From: Coriobacteriales bacterium
GTDB lineage: Bacteria > Actinomycetota > Coriobacteriia > Coriobacteriales > UBA8131
NCBI GenBank assembly: GCA_031256715.1
Contig: JAIRQA010000128.1
Span: forward strand, 1 to 57,978
DNA: 57,978 nucleotides
Direction of reading: 5' to 3'
The translations under genes and the position numbers were made by a program. Shown here piece by piece: positions 2 to 51,898 of the stretch. A model generated the notes under the pieces. That model had not been told where the DNA came from and ran no database searches. It saw only the letters and a program-made list of their open reading frames with translations. Every line of letters starts with the position of its first letter. The stretch's first letter is position 1.

Positions 2-1036
2 GCAAAAGGTCGCTGGTTGGCAGTACTAGAATCAGATGATTTTGCCTTGCCAAAAATGCTTGAACTCTTATACAATGCCGCAATTAAGCATCAGGTTCAA
101 GTTGTAAAAGGAAACTGTTGGTTTTATTGGAGCGGAAATAAGCTTAAAGATGCATCAGAGCTTAAGAACGCTTCAGACGTTAAAGTGTTCTCTGAGCTTA
201 AGGACGCTTCAGGCGCTAAAGTGGCCTCTGAGCTTAAGGGCGCTTCAGGCGTTAAAGATAAAAAAACAAGACGATCGCGTGAACGCAAAAAATTTGTGAG
301 TCTTGTGCCGCGCAAACAGACAGGCTATGTTTTAGCGCCATTAAGTGGCAAGATTAAAGATACAGAGATCTTTTTTCTACCACCATCAATCTGGTCTGGT
401 CTTTACGAAGTAGAATTCCTTCGCAACAATAACATCCGCTTTTTAGAAACACCTGGTGCGTCTTATCAGGACACTTCGTTTAACTTCAAGGTTTGGGTAC
501 TTGCAAGTAAAGTAAACTTTATAAGCGAAGCTGTTTTGTATTACCGTCAAGATAATGAGTCATCATCTATGAACTCTAAGGCAAAGGCAGACGCTGTTGT
601 CACAGAGTTTTCCGAGATGAAAAGATTTATTCAAGCTTCAGCCAATGATGCATTTCAAGCGCAAGATAAAAGTAAACCTGAGCTAACACTGACCTTAGAC
701 AACGAGCGCTTAAGTTTGCTTTTAGCGGTTTTACGCAAAATGCAATTTGACACTTATCTTTGGAACTACGAGCGTCTTAAAAGCGATTTGCAGCTTACCT
801 TTCTAAAGTTTTTTGCCAAAGAGTTTCAAGAAACCTGTGATATGCATGCAAAAGAAGAACTCTTGTTTTTTGAGGAGTGGAAGGCTAAAGATATGCAGCT
901 GATTGTTGCAGATCCCGATAATTATCATCGCTTACGTTCAGCAGCTGGTCAGTATTCGCAAAAAGGCAAGCTAGTGCACTACTATCGCCTTGGTGGTTTA
1001 AGGCTTTTGCTTAAAATACTACGCTCAAAACTCTAA
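2..1036 (+). CDS. Glycosyltransferase family 2, 5'-truncated by window edge
   Basis: Open frame from base 2 (AKGRWLAVLESDD, GT-A acidic motif); PSIWSGLY, RFLETPGASYQD and YYRQDNESSS motifs typical of GT2; carries a repeat insertion at 141-257. Confidence 0.85.
   Translation, partial: AKGRWLAVLESDDFALPKMLELLYNAAIKHQVQVVKGNCWFYWSGNKLKDASELKNASDVKVFSELKDASGAKVASELKGASGVKDKKTRRSRERKKFVSLVPRKQTGYVLAPLSGKIKDTEIFFLPPSIWSGLYEVEFLRNNNIRFLETPGASYQDTSFNFKVWVLASKVNFISEAVLYYRQDNESSSMNSKAKADAVVTEFSEMKRFIQASANDAFQAQDKSKPELTLTLDNERLSLLLAVLRKMQFDTYLWNYERLKSDLQLTFLKFFAKEFQETCDMHAKEELLFFEEWKAKDMQLIVADPDNYHRLRSAAGQYSQKGKLVHYYRLGGLRLLLKILRSKL
141..257 (+). repeat. In-frame tandem repeat, 18-bp unit with 36-bp higher-order period
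   Basis: LKDASE/LKNASD/VKVFSE/LKDASG/AKVASE/LKGASG. Confidence 0.9.
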
Positions 1037-5997: not shown

Positions 5998-6158
5998 GTT
6001 TAAACCTTCCTAACTAAGCTTGGCTAAATAAAGAGCACTTAGCTTGCGTACGTACGAGGAACAGTAAGCAAGTTATTGTTTTCCAAGCGTCACAAAGCGG
6101 CATTGCAAATGGCGACTTGTGGACGAAGAACCATTAAGCAAGTTATTGTTCTCCAAGC
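5987..6158. repeat. Three spaced copies of taagcaagtt (5991, 6065, 6135); copy 1 contains the DegT-family start codon
   Basis: 6065-6088 vs 6135-6158 match at 23/24; ccattaagcaagtt identical at 5987 and 6131. Confidence 0.8.
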
Positions 6159-8077: not shown

Positions 8078-8137
8078 TGCTTTGTTAAGTCTTTGTGCCG
8101 TTGCAAATAACATGGCACTTGCCACATTTTTTAGCGC

Positions 8138-8243
8138 TTCTCTAACTCGCTAATCTTTGCAAGTCGTTCGCCGCATTAGGAGTACCAACTTAAAACGCTA
8201 TCGCAGTTTCTCTAACTCGCTAATCTTTGCAAGTCGTTCGCCG
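8138..8243. repeat. Perfect 36-bp direct repeat (8138-8173, 8208-8243) around a 34-bp spacer, duplicating the rpiB 3' end
   Basis: ttctctaactcgctaatctttgcaagtcgttcgccg occurs twice. Confidence 0.95.
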
Positions 8244-8641
8244 TGACGCCCGCCTACAAAATCAGTGCCAAAAAATGCATCAATGATCGCCTGATTGTCT
8301 TCAACAGAAATAAATCGTGCAGATAATGCTAGTATATTAGCATCGTTATGTTCTCTTGCAAGTTTGGCAAATTCAGGTGTCGTTACATTTGCGGCTCGAA
8401 TCCCGGCAATCTTATTTGCCGCAATTGACATGCCTATGCCGGTGCCGCAGATTAACACTCCCCCATCTGCCTTGTTGGCCAATATTGCCAGAGCAACTGC
8501 TTGAGCATAATCCGGATAATCCACACGTTCGTCATTAGCAGGTCCAAGATCGCAAACAATGTGCCTCTTTTTTTCTAAGTACTTCACAAGGGCTTGTTTC
8601 TGAAAATAACCAGCATGGTCTGAGGCAATAGCAATTCTCAT
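8198..8641 (-). CDS. rpiB: Ribose-5-phosphate isomerase B
   Basis: IASDHAG, VDYPD, CGTGIGMSIAANK, HNDAN, GGRH; ATG 8641 follows GGAG. Confidence 0.93.
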   Translation of the reverse strand: MRIAIASDHAGYFQKQALVKYLEKKRHIVCDLGPANDERVDYPDYAQAVALAILANKADGGVLICGTGIGMSIAANKIAGIRAANVTTPEFAKLAREHNDANILALSARFISVEDNQAIIDAFFGTDFVGGRHGERLAKISELEKLR

Positions 8642-8743
8642 AGTTGTCTCCAATCCTGCACTTCATAGCGGCTAAAACTAAGTATGAAAGTTAACCGGCT
8701 TTTCATGCTTCACCTTTCTGTCTTTTGCCTGTGTCTTGTTAGC

Positions 8744-9388: not shown

Positions 9389-10399
9389 CTAAGAGCAATT
9401 ACGGGCAGTTATAAAGCGCTGCCGTTCTGTAAGGTCGTTATGAATGACTATATCGTTGTAGGCCATGGCAGATAAGATATTGGCAGCACTGTCTAAACAT
9501 TGTTCATGCAGCTCACAAGCCAACAATCCACCTGGTTTTAAAAGCCTAGTTGCTTGTTTAGATAAAAGCTCAAAAACTCGTAAACCATCAACACCTCCGT
9601 CTAAGGCCTGTTTGTTTTCGAAATATCGCACTTCACATGGCAGCGTGTCTATTAAGTCACTGGGGATATAAGGCGGGTTAGAGACAACAACATCAAAACT
9701 CTTCTGATCTTGCGGGCTGGTAAGAAGTGAAGTTGCCAAATCATCCAGTAAAAAAGTGACTCTATTGCTTTGCGTCTTTTCTAGAAGCTGAGCGTTATCT
9801 TTGGCAAGCTCTAAAGCGCAGGCGTCATTATCAGTTGCCACAATTAAACAACACGGATGCTCATGAAGCAAAGAAAGTGCGATGCAACCTGTGCCTGTGC
9901 CCACATCTAGTACCTTTGGCTTGTCAAAAGAAGTTGTCTTCTCTAAATAAACAGCATTTGCATCAGACGTCCTAAAACTAACAGCATTTGCATCAGACGT
10001 CCTAAAGCTAGCCGCATTTTCCTGCGCATCCCCGGAAAAAAAAGCCTTAGTGGCACCGCCACAGACAAGCTCATCTAACACCAACTCTACCAACATCTCT
10101 GTCTCTGGACGTGGAATAAGCACAGGCGAACGCACTATTAACTCAAGGTGACGAAAGGGCGCATAACCCATAATGTATTGCAGAGGTTCATGTGCATCAC
10201 GCCTTTTGATGGCCTCACGCAAAGTAGCTCTTTCGTTAACGCTTAAAGGACGTTCGTAGTCTAAATATAGCTCCAACCGCGAAAGCCCTGTTGCATAAGC
10301 AAGAAGCTGTTGAGAAACAAGCCGCGGGTTATGCTCACCCGCTTTACTGAAGTGGTCAGTCGTCCACTCTAAGGCGGTATGTATGGTCCAGATGCTCAA
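9389..10399 (-). CDS. prmC: Release factor glutamine methyltransferase
   Basis: EPLQYI, LIPRPETE, DVGTGTG, SNPPY, ALDGG; follows prfA; 30-bp repeat insertion at about 9950-10020. Confidence 0.95.
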   Translation of the reverse strand: MSIWTIHTALEWTTDHFSKAGEHNPRLVSQQLLAYATGLSRLELYLDYERPLSVNERATLREAIKRRDAHEPLQYIMGYAPFRHLELIVRSPVLIPRPETEMLVELVLDELVCGGATKAFFSGDAQENAASFRTSDANAVSFRTSDANAVYLEKTTSFDKPKVLDVGTGTGCIALSLLHEHPCCLIVATDNDACALELAKDNAQLLEKTQSNRVTFLLDDLATSLLTSPQDQKSFDVVVSNPPYIPSDLIDTLPCEVRYFENKQALDGGVDGLRVFELLSKQATRLLKPGGLLACELHEQCLDSAANILSAMAYNDIVIHNDLTERQRFITARNCS

Positions 10400-27537: not shown

Positions 27538-28137
27538 TTAAACATCTACCTCGCTCTTTGCCGTAATACTTGACTTACCCGCGCTATCAGGCACGTCAGC
27601 GCTCGTGTTATCCGTTGCGGGATCTTGACTTATGGTAAATTCACCATCTAAAAATCTGTTGTACTCATCAGCGCTCGTGTTATCCGTTGCTTGTTGTTGC
27701 TTGGCATCATCAACAAGTTCCTTGGCAATTTTTCCCAAAACCCCATTAACAAACTTAGATGACAAATCGTCACCACCATAGTCTTTAGCAAGCTCAACTG
27801 CCTCATTTATAGTAACGCTAAAAGGAACATCCTCTACATAAATCATCTCGAAAACTGCCAAGCGCAAAATATTTAAATCGATCAGCGGCATACGCTCGAC
27901 ACTCCAATTTGCCGAAGTCTTAGCTATAAGATCATCTATCTCATGAAGGTTACATTCGGTGCCTAATGCTAGCATGCTAGTAAACTCACAAGGCAGCCCA
28001 ATTTCATCTTGAATATAGAGCTCTTTGTGAATAATCTCATGAATAGATAGCTCTGAAATCTGCGACTGATAAAGCATCTGCAACGCCTTACGGCGGGCAG
28101 CAGTGCGGGTCTGAAACATTTTTTGCTTATTTTTCAT
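27538..28137 (-). CDS. nusB: Transcription antitermination factor NusB with acidic C-terminal extension
   Basis: ARRKALQMLY, WSVERM, ILRLA, INEAVELAK, FVNGVL. Confidence 0.95.
   Translation of the reverse strand: MKNKQKMFQTRTAARRKALQMLYQSQISELSIHEIIHKELYIQDEIGLPCEFTSMLALGTECNLHEIDDLIAKTSANWSVERMPLIDLNILRLAVFEMIYVEDVPFSVTINEAVELAKDYGGDDLSSKFVNGVLGKIAKELVDDAKQQQATDNTSADEYNRFLDGEFTISQDPATDNTSADVPDSAGKSSITAKSEVDV
27596..27690. repeat. Perfect 23-bp direct repeat with 72-bp period in the nusB tail
   Basis: tcagcgctcgtgttatccgttgc at 27596 and 27668 (ATDNTSAD twice). Confidence 0.9.
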
Positions 28138-40322: not shown

Positions 40323-41054
40323 TCATTTATTAGAATCCGTTAAAAAGTTAATGACATCACAATAAACTTTAGATGCCATACGGGAATTTTCTAACAGCGC
40401 TTCTACTTCACTATTTGCAGACAAGGCTTTGTTGCGATCTTTCATAAGCTTTGTGTTCGCAAAGGCACTAAGTGCCGCTGCCTTAAGAGCTGCGTTAGCA
40501 AAAATAGCACAACAACCAGCATCAGAAATAGCCAATCTAGTTCCCTTTTTGGTATATTCGGCTGCAAGCTCTATAACCTTATAAGACTCTTGCATGATAT
40601 GTAATGATGTCAAGTAGCAGTCGTCAAGTGCAAGCTCTATTTTATCTGCTTTTTCTTTTTTTTGTTGGTCATTTTCGCCAGATAAAGAATAGGCCAACAT
40701 TAGTGAATCAAAGGCTTTGCCGTCTTTATCTACAAGTTCTAATAGTCTGTCTTGCAAGGACTTAGCTCGCTGATTTAAAGCAATAATATCGTCTTGTACT
40801 TGGACATATTTTTCTTTACCAACAGTTAGCGAGCCAACCATGTTACCTAATGCCGCGGCTATAGCAGCAACTAAGGCAGCAGCTCCGCCTCCACCTGGAG
40901 TAGGTGCCTTAGAGGCTAAAACGCTTACAAATTGCTTACATGAAAGATTGATCGCTTGCTCAGCTAATACGTTTCCGCATGCTTGCTCGTCTGCGACATT
41001 GTTGTTGCATGCTTGCTCGTCTGCGACATTGTTGTTGCTTGGTTGCTCGCTCAT
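40323..41054 (-). CDS. fchA: Methenyl-THF cyclohydrolase (FTCD_C family)
   Basis: LASKAPTPGGG, MVGSLTVGK, AISDAG; between fhs and folD; N-terminal 30-bp repeat at about 40954-41038. Confidence 0.88.
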   Translation of the reverse strand: MSEQPSNNNVADEQACNNNVADEQACGNVLAEQAINLSCKQFVSVLASKAPTPGGGGAAALVAAIAAALGNMVGSLTVGKEKYVQVQDDIIALNQRAKSLQDRLLELVDKDGKAFDSLMLAYSLSGENDQQKKEKADKIELALDDCYLTSLHIMQESYKVIELAAEYTKKGTRLAISDAGCCAIFANAALKAAALSAFANTKLMKDRNKALSANSEVEALLENSRMASKVYCDVINFLTDSNK

Positions 41055-42857: not shown

Positions 42858-45266
42858 TTACTCCAGATGCTCTTCGATATCTAGCTCCATCATAGCAACA
42901 TTATCAAAAAGCTTTGCAGCTGTTTCTCTGGAAATACGCCCATGCTCCTGATATGAACGAATGGCTTCACGCTCAAAGGCAAGCGCGGCAGACTCGACAT
43001 CTGCCAGATGCATTTCATATTCTTTATTCTTGTGTACCGAAATACCTGTTAGAGGTCTACCAAATGTCTCTGTGCGCGACAAGCGACGGCGAAAATCACT
43101 AACAACCATATTTATGGCACGTATAGGTGCACCAGGTTCTGCCATAAGCGTATCTAGCTTGCGTAAGACATTGCGGTAGTTAACCCTTTGCAGTTCTTGC
43201 AAGCTAATAGCCATACTGTGTCGTCCCATCTTTGCGGCTTCGCCACGCAAAGCTTGACGTTGCTCTTTAGAGGGCTCTGACGCATTTAAGGCAGATTCTT
43301 TGTTGGCTCTGAATCTGCGAGCCAAAAAGCGGTGGCGCAATTGATCAAAGAAACCTTTAAGTAACCATTGCCTCTCGCCATGATGCTCGATATGCGACAA
43401 CATACGACTAAGCTGATATAAATACATGGTTCCCACAACCAAAGAAACCTTATCTTCATCTATAAGTTCTAAGGTATACTCGCGTTCCCAAGCTATAATA
43501 CGACGTCTAAGTTCGTCTTCATCAGGGTCGCTGATATTATTGTTTTGCTTGTATGTTATTAGGCGATTGTTGTATTGTCTAATAACACTTTCGCTAGCTT
43601 GCTTGTTTTGTGGCGTCATTTGTTCTGAAAGCCTATGTATGACGTTTCTGCAGATGTCCATAATTGCGCGTACTTCATCTTCTGGTTGTAAAGCTTCATG
43701 CACTTTTGGAGCTATAAGCGGAAGGACAAAGTTGGCAAGCAGGAGCGAAAGCATGATGATACATGACGCCAAAAAGAGTAAAAGACTTCGCTGCGGAAAA
43801 TCTGCTCCATCGCTTAATGTTAAAGGTATCGTAAGCAACAAAGCTAAGGTAATAGCACCTTTTACACCTGTTAATGAAAGCACTAAAGCATCGTGAACAT
43901 GTGCTTTAAAATAACCGGGAGCGCTGCGTTCGGCGGCAATGGCTGCGCGTCGTTGCGCCTTAACATCAAGCTTAGATTGTTCGCGCTCCTGCGTACGTAA
44001 AGTGTGACGTGCTTCAGCCATTTCCTCGATAGTTGTGATAGATTCATCTACTTGCGTCATAGAAGGCGTAGAATCAAAGGTCATAGGAAATGCAGAATAC
44101 GTAGCTTGTTGCGTCACCTCAGCTGCATTAGCTACACCTGTAACTTGCGTCACCTCAGCTGCATTAGCTACACCTGTAACTTGCGGCGACAGCGGTAGAT
44201 GCGCTTTTCTCGTTACAATAATACTATTGCGATGCATAACAAAGACCCAAATAAGGCGCAACAACATTATCGCTGCCAATATGGCAACAACGGCAACAAT
44301 CAGGCGTAGGTGACCTACCTCTGAAAACTGCCAAAGGTGCATCGTTAAACCAGGAAGTTGAGTGCCCAAAATTAGAAAGACTACACCATTAAGAGCATAA
44401 CCAATTACACTCCAAACACTACCTGAAACGATGTTTTGCATGGCTTTTGTTGGTGTTTGACTGCGACCACCAAAAGAGTGCGCAATGCCTGCGGTGACTA
44501 CAGCAATGATGCCGGAAACATGCAGAGCCTCGGCAATAAGAAAAACAATAAAAGGTGTAACAATCTCAAAAAGAACGTGAAAAGTAATGCTATCTACACC
44601 TCTTGCGCGCAAAAAGCGCACCAATGCATAACGCAATAACATTAGAACTATTCCTGTGGCAACGCCACCCAAAAACATGACAGCAAAGGTTATGGCAACA
44701 TCGCCAAAAAATACTAATCCAGGCTCGCCAGCCGCTGCGGCAAAAGGACCTACAGCCAAAGCTGCTAATGCAAACTGAAAAGAAACGATAGATGAAGCGT
44801 CATTAAAAAGTGCCTCGCCCTGTAAAAGCCCTTCCTGATCTTCTGTGATGGTAATGCTCTCTTTTAAAGAAGATACAGCTACAGCATCTGTAGGCGCTAA
44901 TGCTGCAGCTAGCGCAATGGCAGCGGCAAGCGGAATGGCAGGGACTAACCAGTTCACAAAACCGCCCACTGCCAAACAGGTAGTAAAAACCAAGCCTAGT
45001 GCCAGCAAAAGAATCGGCCGCTTAAGTCGCCAAAGCATAGGTTTATTGGCTTTCTTTGCGTCTTCAAAAAGTAAGGGAGCTATAAATAATACCAAGAAAA
45101 GTTCTGGGTCTAAGCTCATGTCAAAATGCAGAAAAGGCATCAGCGCAATTGCTATGCCTAGACCAATTTGGATTAATGGTGTAGAGATGCGCGGAAACCT
45201 TTGGCTAATAAGATTACTTAGAAGCACAGCGCCAAGCATTACCAATATGTATTCAAAAGAGTGCAT
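42858..45266 (-). CDS. CPA1-family Na+/H+ antiporter with long cytoplasmic C-terminus
   Basis: PLLFED, LAPTDAVAV, GEALFNDA, GVKGAITLA; insertion containing a perfect 36-bp duplication. Confidence 0.88.
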   Translation of the reverse strand: MHSFEYILVMLGAVLLSNLISQRFPRISTPLIQIGLGIAIALMPFLHFDMSLDPELFLVLFIAPLLFEDAKKANKPMLWRLKRPILLLALGLVFTTCLAVGGFVNWLVPAIPLAAAIALAAALAPTDAVAVSSLKESITITEDQEGLLQGEALFNDASSIVSFQFALAALAVGPFAAAAGEPGLVFFGDVAITFAVMFLGGVATGIVLMLLRYALVRFLRARGVDSITFHVLFEIVTPFIVFLIAEALHVSGIIAVVTAGIAHSFGGRSQTPTKAMQNIVSGSVWSVIGYALNGVVFLILGTQLPGLTMHLWQFSEVGHLRLIVAVVAILAAIMLLRLIWVFVMHRNSIIVTRKAHLPLSPQVTGVANAAEVTQVTGVANAAEVTQQATYSAFPMTFDSTPSMTQVDESITTIEEMAEARHTLRTQEREQSKLDVKAQRRAAIAAERSAPGYFKAHVHDALVLSLTGVKGAITLALLLTIPLTLSDGADFPQRSLLLFLASCIIMLSLLLANFVLPLIAPKVHEALQPEDEVRAIMDICRNVIHRLSEQMTPQNKQASESVIRQYNNRLITYKQNNNISDPDEDELRRRIIAWEREYTLELIDEDKVSLVVGTMYLYQLSRMLSHIEHHGERQWLLKGFFDQLRHRFLARRFRANKESALNASEPSKEQRQALRGEAAKMGRHSMAISLQELQRVNYRNVLRKLDTLMAEPGAPIRAINMVVSDFRRRLSRTETFGRPLTGISVHKNKEYEMHLADVESAALAFEREAIRSYQEHGRISRETAAKLFDNVAMMELDIEEHLE
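44109..44185 (-). repeat. Perfect 2 x 36-bp in-frame tandem duplication
   Basis: QVTGVANAAEVT twice. Confidence 0.95.
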
Positions 45267-49118: not shown

Positions 49119-49127
49119 TTAACGCAA

Positions 49128-49245
49128 TTAGGCTTTGATGTTAGCATGACTTTGTTGTTAATTAGGTTTTGCTGCTTACGTGACTTTGTCGTTACCAAGG
49201 CTTTTTCGTTAACAAGGTTTTGTTGTTAACAAGGTTTGTTGTTAA
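49128..49245. repeat. Degenerate 16-17 bp tandem array downstream of the pilin
   Basis: aacaaggttttgttgtt-like units, about 7 copies. Confidence 0.8.
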
Positions 49246-49342
49246 GCATGAACGTAGGGGGTATGCAGTCGGTGGGGCGCAAGCAACAGAAAGCGTGCGA
49301 GCAGGTTTGTTGTTAAGCATGAACGTAGGGGGTATGCAGTCG
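49232..49342. repeat. Perfect 40-bp direct repeat (49232-49271, 49303-49342) around a 31-bp spacer
   Basis: aggtttgttgttaagcatgaacgtagggggtatgcagtcg occurs twice. Confidence 0.95.
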
Positions 49343-49990: not shown

Positions 49991-51898
49991 TTAATGCCGA
50001 AAGTGACGATGACCGGTAAAGACAAGTGCAATGCCAGCTTCGTTAGCGGCAGCTATGACTTCCTCGTCACGAACAGAACCGCCGGGTTGAATTACGGCAA
50101 CAACGCCACCATCAGTTAACACTTTAAGTGAATCTGCAAATGGCATAAACGCGTCGCTGGCGGCTACAGCACCTTGAGCTAAATCACCAGCTTGTTTTAT
50201 GGCAAGCTCTGCCGAATTAACACGATTTGGCTGACCGGCTCCAATACCTATACTAGCATAATCTTTAGCTATTAAAATAGCATTGCTTTTAACTGACTTG
50301 CAAGCACGCCAGGCAAACAGTAACTCATCAAATTGTTCTGGTGTTGGCTTTACATCTGTAGGAAAAGAAAACTCGGCAGGATTTTCGTTTACAGAGTCGG
50401 CGGTCATAGCAAGTATGCCACCTTCTATACTGCGATATTCTAGCGACGCACCTGCAGGATTTATGCCCCCTGTTACAAGTATACGAGCACTAGGTTTTTG
50501 TTTAAGCAACTCTAACGCGCCATCTTCATACTCTGGCGCAACCATAGCCTCAATAAACTGACCGTTGTTAAAAATTGCTTGTACCAGTTCTGTTGTCACT
50601 GTTCTATTAAAAGCCATAACTCCGCCAAATGCGCTAACCGGGTCGCAATCATGTGCTTTTTGATAAGCAGCTGTTATGGAACTGTCTAAAGCTATTCCAC
50701 ATGGCGTAAGGTGCTTAACAATCACTGCCGCTGGCTTATCATTGGCACTGCAAAACTCTCGAACTGCCGCCCAAGCAGCATCTAGATCTAAATAATTATT
50801 GTAAGAAAGCTCCTTACCCTGAAGTTGCTTTGCGTTGGCAAGCAAATATTCGCTATTCTGCTTACCACAATCTGTGCTTGACCCAACGTAAAATGCTGCC
50901 TGCTGGTGCGGATTTTCTCCATAGCGTAAATTGGCGGACTTTCGTAAAAAGAGACGCTTATCGTTAGCAAAACTGTTAGTAAAACTGTTAGCAAAGCTGT
51001 TAGCAAAGCTGTCGCGTTGTGAATCGTCACCCTTTTGTGCATCATCACCCTTTTGCACATAACCACCATTTTGCGAATCACTACCCTGTGTGGCAAGCCA
51101 ACTATAAATAGCATTGTCATAGGCAGATGTTAGTTTAAATACCTCTAAAGCTAAGCTTTGACGCGTAGCATAACTTAAGCAACCGCCAAGCTCATGCATC
51201 TCTGCTATTATGCTAGCATAACTTTCGGGTGCAGTTACAACCGCAACCGATGCATGGTTTTTGGCAGCAGAGCGCAACATAGACGGTCCGCCGATATCTA
51301 TATTTTCTATGGCAAGTTCATAAGTAACGTCTGCGCGAGCAATTGTGGCTTCGAAGGCGTAAAGATTAACCACTACCATGTCTATCATGCCTATACCATG
51401 CTCGCTAGCTTGTTGCATGTGCTCTTGCAAGTCGCGCCTTGCAAGTAGACCACCATGTACGCGCGGGTGTAAAGTCTTTACTCGCCCATCCATCATCTCG
51501 GGAAAGCCGGTTAGTTCATCGATGGTCTTAACTGGCAATCCCGCATCTATTAATACCTTAGCTGTACCTCCGGTAGAGACAAGCTCCACAGCAAATTGCT
51601 CATGTAAGGCTTTAGCGAAGTTAACTATGCCTGATTTGTTGGTAACAGAGAGCAATGCGCGCTTAATTATCGGCTCTGATTTTAGGTCAGATTTGGTCTT
51701 TGTATCCAAATCCAGCTTAAGACCAGAATCTAGATTTGCGCAAGCGTCAGACTTAAGGTCAGAATCGGTATTTGCGCAAGCGTCAGACTTAAGACCAGAA
51801 TCGGGATTTGCGCAAGCGTCAGAATTAAGACCAGAATCGGGATTTGCGCAAGCGTCAGACCTAAGGTTGTATTCGGTTTTATTAAGAGCATCAGACAT
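49991..51898 (-). CDS. purH: Bifunctional AICAR transformylase/IMP cyclohydrolase
   Basis: RALLSV, STGGT, GRVKTLHP, IDIGGP, LRYGENPHQ, LSYNN, KSNA, SDAF, QPGGS, RHFRH. Confidence 0.97.
   Translation of the reverse strand: MSDALNKTEYNLRSDACANPDSGLNSDACANPDSGLKSDACANTDSDLKSDACANLDSGLKLDLDTKTKSDLKSEPIIKRALLSVTNKSGIVNFAKALHEQFAVELVSTGGTAKVLIDAGLPVKTIDELTGFPEMMDGRVKTLHPRVHGGLLARRDLQEHMQQASEHGIGMIDMVVVNLYAFEATIARADVTYELAIENIDIGGPSMLRSAAKNHASVAVVTAPESYASIIAEMHELGGCLSYATRQSLALEVFKLTSAYDNAIYSWLATQGSDSQNGGYVQKGDDAQKGDDSQRDSFANSFANSFTNSFANDKRLFLRKSANLRYGENPHQQAAFYVGSSTDCGKQNSEYLLANAKQLQGKELSYNNYLDLDAAWAAVREFCSANDKPAAVIVKHLTPCGIALDSSITAAYQKAHDCDPVSAFGGVMAFNRTVTTELVQAIFNNGQFIEAMVAPEYEDGALELLKQKPSARILVTGGINPAGASLEYRSIEGGILAMTADSVNENPAEFSFPTDVKPTPEQFDELLFAWRACKSVKSNAILIAKDYASIGIGAGQPNRVNSAELAIKQAGDLAQGAVAASDAFMPFADSLKVLTDGGVVAVIQPGGSVRDEEVIAAANEAGIALVFTGHRHFRH
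50963..51058 (-). repeat. In-frame 18-bp and 12-bp repeats in the PurH inter-domain linker
   Basis: QKGDDA QKGDDS; SFAN SFAN SFTN SFAN. Confidence 0.9.
51676..51865 (-). repeat. About 5 x 36-bp in-frame repeat forming the PurH N-terminal extension
   Basis: L[RNK]SDACAN[PTL]DS[GD] four times plus a degenerate copy. Confidence 0.95.

Follow-up and report, generated by a model that had tools for sequence, protein, structure and literature searches.

What kind of process writes the last few dozen bases of a gene twice, and places between the two copies a short stretch of DNA that aligns with neither of them nor with the surrounding sequence? The question is raised by the 3' end of rpiB in the window considered here, that is the whole stretch of 57,978 nucleotides that was analysed, which is the entire contig C139 of G000, a 2,658,392-base assembly of a Coriobacteriales bacterium (145 contigs, 78% complete, no N). 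An earlier note, made from the letters of this stretch, had described the unit at rpiB as having a CRISPR-like geometry outside any array and had proposed that a ruler-like integration, of the kind performed by Cas1-Cas2, acts at many sites.

The duplicated end of rpiB

The gene for ribose-5-phosphate isomerase B occupies positions 8198..8653 on the minus strand as an open reading frame of 151 amino acids (Pfam LacAB_rpiB, E 3.8e-53), the product of which aligns with solved RpiB chains through residue 149 of 151. At its end, the stretches 8138-8173 and 8208-8243 are identical in 36 of 36 nucleotides and lie 70 nt apart from start to start, being separated by the 34 nt of 8174-8207. The perfect duplication around a 34-bp insert which holds the rpiB stop is therefore as the earlier note had described it (identity 100%, period 70), and a perfect repeat of a 36-mer within 58 kb is not a matter of chance. 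The gene-proximal copy (8208..8243, minus strand) encodes GERLAKISELEK, the last 12 conserved codons of rpiB, after which the spacer-like insert (8174..8207) supplies the new codons L and R together with a stop, such that the frame ends ...GERLAKISELEKLR-TAG with its stop at 8198-8200, within the insert. The distal copy (8138..8173, minus strand), recognised by sequence identity, is now untranslated; it reads on in frame to R-TAA, as had also been claimed, the bases GCGC-TAA at 8131..8137 (minus strand) forming a putative ancestral gene end, ...ELEKR-stop. In this regard, the TAA would be the ancestral rpiB stop on the basis of a hairpin that comes directly after it, which folds with an 8-bp stem and a 4-nt loop and is followed by a U-rich run (8109..8128, minus strand). 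This hairpin, between convergent genes, is probably the rpiB terminator, the assignment being a weak one since a simple terminator scan did not call it. As predicted from the DNA, the RpiB protein is intact and changed at its last residues only, with LR-stop in the place of R-stop.

At an offset of 70 the identity is 36/36 within the repeat and is at chance level beyond both of its edges. As a bona fide CRISPR array the unit was rejected, its repeat being rpiB coding sequence with only two copies in G000 and no others. In none of four orientations does the insert give a significant local alignment with either flank or with the repeat, which disposes of the caveat in the earlier note that part of the spacer resembles adjacent rpiB sequence and would favour a decayed tandem duplication. 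A mirror or complement relation was likewise set aside: the reversed insert shares its first six bases with the sequence after copy 2, and a comparison of 49 units in four orientations gave no systematic signal, such that the shared bases are attributed to chance.

Relatives of this locus are distant. Among 41 related genomes searched, G000 is the sole member of its genus and the best match, at 76% identity, is to the neighbouring ABC transporter gene only; a scan of metagenome_contigs for RpiB gave a closest relative that is 60% identical. Contigs of four runs were also aligned to the window and there is, among the matches listed, no joint or piece over 8138-8213, an outcome which bears neither way on the existence of an empty allele. 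Nearby, between rpiB and the next gene, 24 nt are inserted behind position 8726 in contigs from runs X3 and X4 (another study) relative to the window, which is strain-level length variation adjoining the rpiB unit. In-frame tandem repeats with a period of 30 or 36 nt are numerous in the window (144-257, 2533-2656, 9945-10004, 40977-41049, 44109-44185 and 51716-51865); the one at 9945-10004 lies within prmC and has the peptide (A)VSFRTSDANA twice in tandem.

Native CRISPR-Cas systems of the genome

The earlier note had pointed to cas1 and cas2, and to the lengths of native repeats and spacers, as matters on which its reading would turn. Both genes are present at three loci (on contigs C47, C97 and C22), in frames that are open without stops. 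On C47 a CRISPR array (1-1171) with 16 repeats, all exact but for one that has four mismatches, is directly adjoined by cas2, cas1 (TIGR00287, E 2e-71), two csm6-like genes and type III RAMP genes including csx10. The repeat of this array is 36 nt long, begins with GTT and ends with AAC, and its spacers are 33-37 nt long with a mode of 34. In other words, the duplication at rpiB has the length of the native repeat and the insert has the modal length of a native spacer (36+34).

Contigs C97 and C22 each carry a type II-A set of cas9, cas1, cas2 and csn2, and the small arrays on C97 have a period of 66. The cas9 of C97 (C97:2110-6908) reads as two open reading frames, of 909 and 654 aa, and the II-A cas1 of C22 (C22:25007-26098) matches its model in two stretches that are some 65 residues apart, close to a tandem repeat of 36 nt. 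The II-A systems of G000 may be damaged.

Copies of the native repeat with nine mismatches or fewer are found only on C47, C11 and C28. On the last two of these contigs (C11:9019-9120 and C28:296-391) lies the same composite, in which two identical REP-like hairpins (~31 nt) surround a 38-nt stretch that is a degenerate copy of the C47 repeat, with 9 mismatches in 36. These composites could represent a hairpin target that was hit by a repeat-derived spacer, or else a small mobile composite.

A genome-wide class of units with a period near 70

The peak in period near 70 that the earlier note had anticipated across the genome is indeed present. Isolated exact direct repeats of at least 20 nt with a spacer number 14, 12, 7 and 16 at offsets of 69, 70, 71 and 72, respectively, as against 1-5 at each of the offsets 66-68 and 73-75. 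With mismatches allowed, 96 isolated rows are obtained at offsets 68-74 (35 perfect, 37 with one or two mismatches and 24 with more), other offsets giving ~1-4 rows each, and higher numbers at some multiples of 3. The repeat lengths of these 96 rows have their mode at 37 nt (16 rows), followed by 34 (9), 28 (8) and 36 (7); at control offsets the equivalent histogram is flat. Repeats of 33-38 nt contribute 11, 9, 10, 7 and 4 rows at periods 69 to 73, 41 rows altogether, and only 0-2 at other offsets apart from a period of 66. At the latter, a second small cluster of five rows with repeats of 33-38 nt appears in the period-by-length table, three of which (C57:2009, C108:302 and C110:1054) are exactly a 36-nt duplication with a 30-nt insert, and this cluster (36+30) matches the period of the II-A arrays.

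The 41 rows, in which repeats measure 33-38 nt and inserts 31-39 nt, are termed the core class in what follows. They correspond to 40 loci, two rows sharing one three-repeat locus, and a filter for REP-like hairpins removed none of them (0/41). Some of the in-frame rows resemble ordinary low-complexity coding repeats (for example C51:3383 and C120:11618), such that 41 is an upper figure. When the units are stacked for comparison, sharp edges recur at ~40 loci.

At C123:15840-16015 a stretch of 36-37 nt occurs three times, with a period of 70, around two different inserts of 33-34 nt; the repeated stretch contains the 3' end and the stop of a 2436-nt minus-strand gene. Three copies with two different inserts mean that the neo-repeat has been used twice, and the locus looks like a neo-CRISPR mini-array that took a second spacer.

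Target ends, placement and age

When the 82 ends of the 41 core targets are read inward, G/T is enriched at position 1, T is found at positions 2 and 3 in 35 and 39 of the 82 ends, and A is depleted at positions 1-3 (10, 10 and 9 of 82). The core ends thereby resemble the GTT...AAC ends of the native repeat. Expressed as an end score, which measures how far the six outermost bases on either side agree with those of the native repeat, the core targets reach 4.83, compared with 3.75 +/- 0.22 in sets drawn from local flanks (120-400 nt away), of which 0 of 2000 reach the core value; windows shifted by 6-12 nt score between 2.98 and 3.98. The rpiB target itself, with ends TTC and CGG, has an end score of 3, which is the random level.

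The placement of the units follows the reading frame, as judged from a simple map of ORFs of at least 450 nt that covers 82% of the genome. None of the 23 core rows with a period that is not a multiple of 3 is found inside an ORF; ten are at ORF 3' ends, 11 are intergenic and two are at ORF 5' ends. For the 18 rows with a period of 69 or 72 the corresponding figures are ten inside ORFs, two at 3' ends, six intergenic and none at 5' ends, and in all ten of the rows within ORFs the reading frame is open through the insert. This frame-dependent placement is the filtering by selection of real DNA. The in-frame units include one in GalU, where 23 additional residues coincide with a gap when the protein is aligned to solved GalU structures, one in an ATPase_2/DUF234 protein, where a P-loop segment is duplicated, and one in a HipA-like protein. 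Elsewhere, gene 3' ends, with the stop codon included, often form the first copy of the repeat. A length-neutral overwrite, in which a patch of sequence is copied to a place 70 nt away, was considered and rejected: within ORFs divisibility by 3 is a property of the period and not of the length of the repeat, and GalU has extra residues relative to the solved structures.

With respect to age, the two copies of the core rows differ by 0, 1, 2, 3, 4, 5 and 6 mismatches in 9, 11, 11, 5, 1, 3 and 1 rows, respectively, a spread which marks them as scars of different ages. The rpiB unit has no mismatches between its copies and is among the youngest of the scars in G000.

Uniqueness and source of the inserts

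Each of the core targets is unique to its own locus, and 36 of the 41 core inserts occur nowhere else in G000, the other five having only weak partial matches. Beyond chance matches of 10 nt, the 41 inserts have nothing in common with one another or with the native spacers. A transposable element was rejected as their origin, there being neither a shared element sequence nor common ends among them. The rpiB insert likewise has no second place in G000, and it has no exact match in viral_contigs and genome_contigs. The search against genome and virome that the earlier note had proposed thus established that the insert is unique in its genome and returned no source for it. Moreover, exact scans of viral_contigs with three inserts and two native spacers gave 0 matches in each case; since the two native spacers are also without a match there, the exact-match test of a viral source has no power, and the search of G000 itself is the only test of source that has.

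Probable off-target integration by the native Cas1-Cas2

The rpiB unit is probably the product of an off-target (ectopic) full-site integration of a spacer by the organism's own Cas1-Cas2. This reading rests on the geometry of the unit, the native array with its cas genes, the genome-wide class, the preference at the target ends, the spread of ages and the filter of selection. The responsible integrase would most likely be the one encoded next to the type III locus of C47, and the evidence suggests that the rpiB scar is one of ~40 scars of off-target spacer integration in G000. In the origin and order of events that we infer, a prespacer of 34 nt would have been joined by the integrase through both of its 3' ends, one to each strand, at points which are 36 bp from each other and enclose the 36 nt that precede the final rpiB codon; gap filling would then have copied the 36-nt target on both sides of the insert, giving target-insert-target, and translation would pass from the proximal copy into the insert to end in LR-stop instead of R-stop. 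As the RpiB enzyme is essentially unchanged, the scar appears to be tolerated.

The presence of such a system is not alone enough to give this load of scars, as is evident from the relative G004. This genome has a Cas1 that is 60% identical to the Cas1 of C47 and an array of the same kind with at least 33 repeats, and in the 400 kb of it that were scanned there are 0 core-class units as against ~6 expected at the density of G000; the same 400 kb contain one isolated unit of period 70, with a repeat of 24 nt. The HU/IHF (DNABII) family, as represented by one model, PF00216, was found in none of 25 Coriobacteriales genomes (G000-G015 and G025-G033), complete ones included, and 9 of 14 control genomes responded to the same model; an absence of the family across these genomes would be surprising if true. 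A lack of HU/IHF as the cause of low fidelity in G000 was rejected, since PF00216 is equally not found in the clean genome G004.

Short-repeat units and the possibility of a fixed-length process

The recurrences of the period that the earlier note had listed in the window are borne out, and they are of more than one kind. A second long unit, intergenic at 49232..49342, consists of a 40-nt perfect duplication and a 31-nt insert (49232/49303, period 71); its duplicated target ends inside a REP-like palindrome, in the loop (ACGTAGGGGG...CCCCCTACGT), and directly upstream of the 40+31+40 unit lies a tandem array of 17/34 nt with ~7 copies (49126-49251). A unit at 27596..27690 on the minus strand has an exact repeat of 23 nt with a period of 72 (27596/27668, 23+49), in frame within a 200-aa ORF. 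A third, at 6057..6158 and upstream of a minus-strand gene, is imperfect, with 32 nt at 88% identity and a period of 70 (6057/6127), and its subclass is uncertain. The proposal of a Cas1-Cas2-type ruler at many sites is upheld by the geometry, the peak in period and the cas genes; it does not carry over to the units at 27596 (23+49) and 6065 (24+46), which belong to a short-repeat subclass outside the prediction of a simple Cas1-Cas2 ruler.

This subclass is found across the genome. Rows with repeats of 18-32 nt number 36 at periods 69-73, as against an expectation of ~3.6 based on neighbouring offsets; removal of REP-like rows and of two fragments of the C123 locus leaves 31. The short-repeat units have sharp edges and longer inserts, are relatively often perfect, and resemble the core class in their locations, being found at the 3' ends of genes and in intergenic DNA. 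Their edges carry no end motif, and their inserts are neither unusually structured nor biased towards hairpins. That they are hidden 36-mers was rejected on three grounds: the edges are sharp, identity in the flanks is only slightly above chance and the end motif is absent. A few units with repeats of 40-46 nt keep the same period of ~70 nt.

What is constant in these units is, therefore, the sum of repeat and insert. A constant sum is not what a fixed ruler for the repeat, combined with a spacer of fixed length, would predict, such that a second process may act in this genome, and this could in principle have made the rpiB unit too. One alternative reading is that an undescribed process, unrelated to Cas1-Cas2, adds a fixed length of ~70 nt, made up of a variable insert and a compensating duplication of the target, and has produced both classes. 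Such a process would account directly for the shared period of short, core and longer repeats, and for the short units, sharp-edged and relatively often perfect, in similar locations. It would not, on the other hand, be expected to reproduce the native array, whereas the mode of the repeat lengths at 36-37 nt is that of the native repeat, the period equals that of the native array, the end motif follows the ends of the native repeat and the second cluster fits the II-A geometry. Moreover, some of the short-repeat rows at periods 69 and 72 may represent coding repeats of an ordinary kind, or harmonics of the 36-nt tandem repeats that are frequent here, even though ~10 rows at period 70 are neither. 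An origin of the rpiB unit in a fixed-length process of this kind is on balance unlikely. The short-repeat class may be the part of the data that hides something new.

Artefact and tandem duplication

An artefact of assembly or library preparation in a low-coverage metagenome bin is a very improbable source of the units. There is some ground for raising it: G000 is fragmented and incomplete, with a coverage of ~7x in the termite-gut run X1, nine of the core rows (rpiB included) have perfect copies, and a better-assembled relative shows no core-class units. An artefact would not, however, keep frame-shifting units out of ORFs (0/23) and admit in-frame ones, nor is there a technical explanation for the end motif and the match to native geometry, and the copies differ by up to six mismatches. 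The contigs of X1 match G000 without differences. In addition, an independent k=31 contig of this run begins exactly 30 nt before the end of copy 2 of the rpiB unit, as it should where reads continue from the 36-mer in two ways, and both copies of the 27596 unit are spanned by contigs of X1 and by contigs of another study's run, X2, the latter with 5 differences in 289 nt.

Least probable of all is the decay of a tandem duplication of a 70-nt unit, generated by slippage or unequal crossing-over, for while the genome is rich in short tandem duplications, and a few units of period 69 are truly of this type (for example C113:847, C63:4866 and C69:3591), at rpiB a perfect 36 nt adjoins 34 nt with no more than chance similarity to either flank, edges as sharp as these are seen from locus to locus, and 100% identity beside identity at random level rules out uniform decay.

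Meaning of the scars

With the rpiB unit taken as a product of off-target spacer integration, G000 is unusual for the many scars it holds and the gradation in their age, for the selective filter that can be seen in their placement, for enzymes with in-frame insertions and for the nascent array. G000 offers a natural record of how often off-target spacer integration occurs and of what it costs. In this record the placement of the scars makes the fitness cost of CRISPR adaptation measurable from sequence, and the natural target sites allow the intrinsic preference of the integrase to be read, with one array born from a gene 3' end. For annotation, it follows that short 'mini-arrays' and odd inserts of 23-24 residues in genomes of this type may be integrase scars. 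A more far-reaching proposal, which is advanced tentatively and is itself rather doubtful, is that CRISPR adaptation is here a chronic mutagen across the genome, leaving dozens of inherited scars, adding 23-24 residues in frame to enzymes, rewriting gene 3' ends and seeding the array on C123, and that the ~30 short-repeat units reveal either an integration that measures the sum of repeat and insert or an undescribed fixed-length insertion.

Comparison with known systems

Transposons and insertion sequences typically generate target-site duplications of 2-14 bp around an element that has terminal inverted repeats and usually encodes a transposase. The rpiB unit is like these in that a direct duplication of the target flanks inserted DNA, and unlike them in the 36 bp of its duplication and the 34 nt of its insert; across G000, moreover, the inserts differ from locus to locus and share no ends. 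Short tandem duplications at gene ends, such as MIRU-like arrays, offer a second likeness, in that the 3' end of a gene with its stop is often the first copy. A tandem duplication copies its unit in full, whereas in G000 the copying is confined to 33-38 nt and the remainder of the 70 nt is unrelated sequence. Orphan or mini CRISPR arrays, which Shmakov et al. (2020) reportedly described away from cas genes, share with the units of G000 the two or three repeats, the unique spacers and the distance from cas genes. They differ in that fragments of host genes (rpiB, galU, an ATPase) serve as the repeats in G000, each confined to its own locus, and no leader-bearing repeat family is present.

The closest likeness is to off-target integration by Cas1-Cas2. 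Nivala, Shipman and Church are said to have described, in Nat Microbiol in 2018, a non-canonical off-target integration by Cas1-Cas2 that gives rise to 'neo-CRISPR' loci. According to a preprint that cites it, the work used the type I-E system of E. coli with cas1-cas2 up-regulated (bioRxiv 10.1101/148544). The scars in G000 resemble these loci in the duplication of a repeat-length target around a spacer-length insert outside any array, in sites that resemble repeat borders, and in the capacity of a neo-repeat to take a further spacer, here on C123. Unlike the E. coli loci, they are natural, number ~40 in one genome, have aged and have been filtered by selection; their geometry is that associated with type III (36+34) and with II-A (36+30), and some of them lie in frame within protein genes.

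Work in vitro gives a similar picture. Work on Cas1-Cas2 of Pyrococcus furiosus (PMC6698737) and on the II-A system of Streptococcus thermophilus (PMC6895254) describes off-target sites that resemble, or share features with, the borders of the repeat, with a ruler that sets the second site; in the latter source, off-target events in plasmid assays are mostly half-sites. In a study of Thermotoga profunda, III-A Cas1-Cas2 alone gives substantial off-target integration in vitro, with low fidelity (PMC13769266), and in these three in-vitro sources taken as a group the HU/IHF family is named as a fidelity factor in integration (PMC6698737, PMC6895254, PMC13769266). Compared with plasmid assays in vitro, the products seen in G000 are completed and inherited insertions in a chromosome. 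On the best explanation, the rpiB unit is an example from nature of a process that is known from over-expression in E. coli and from work in vitro.
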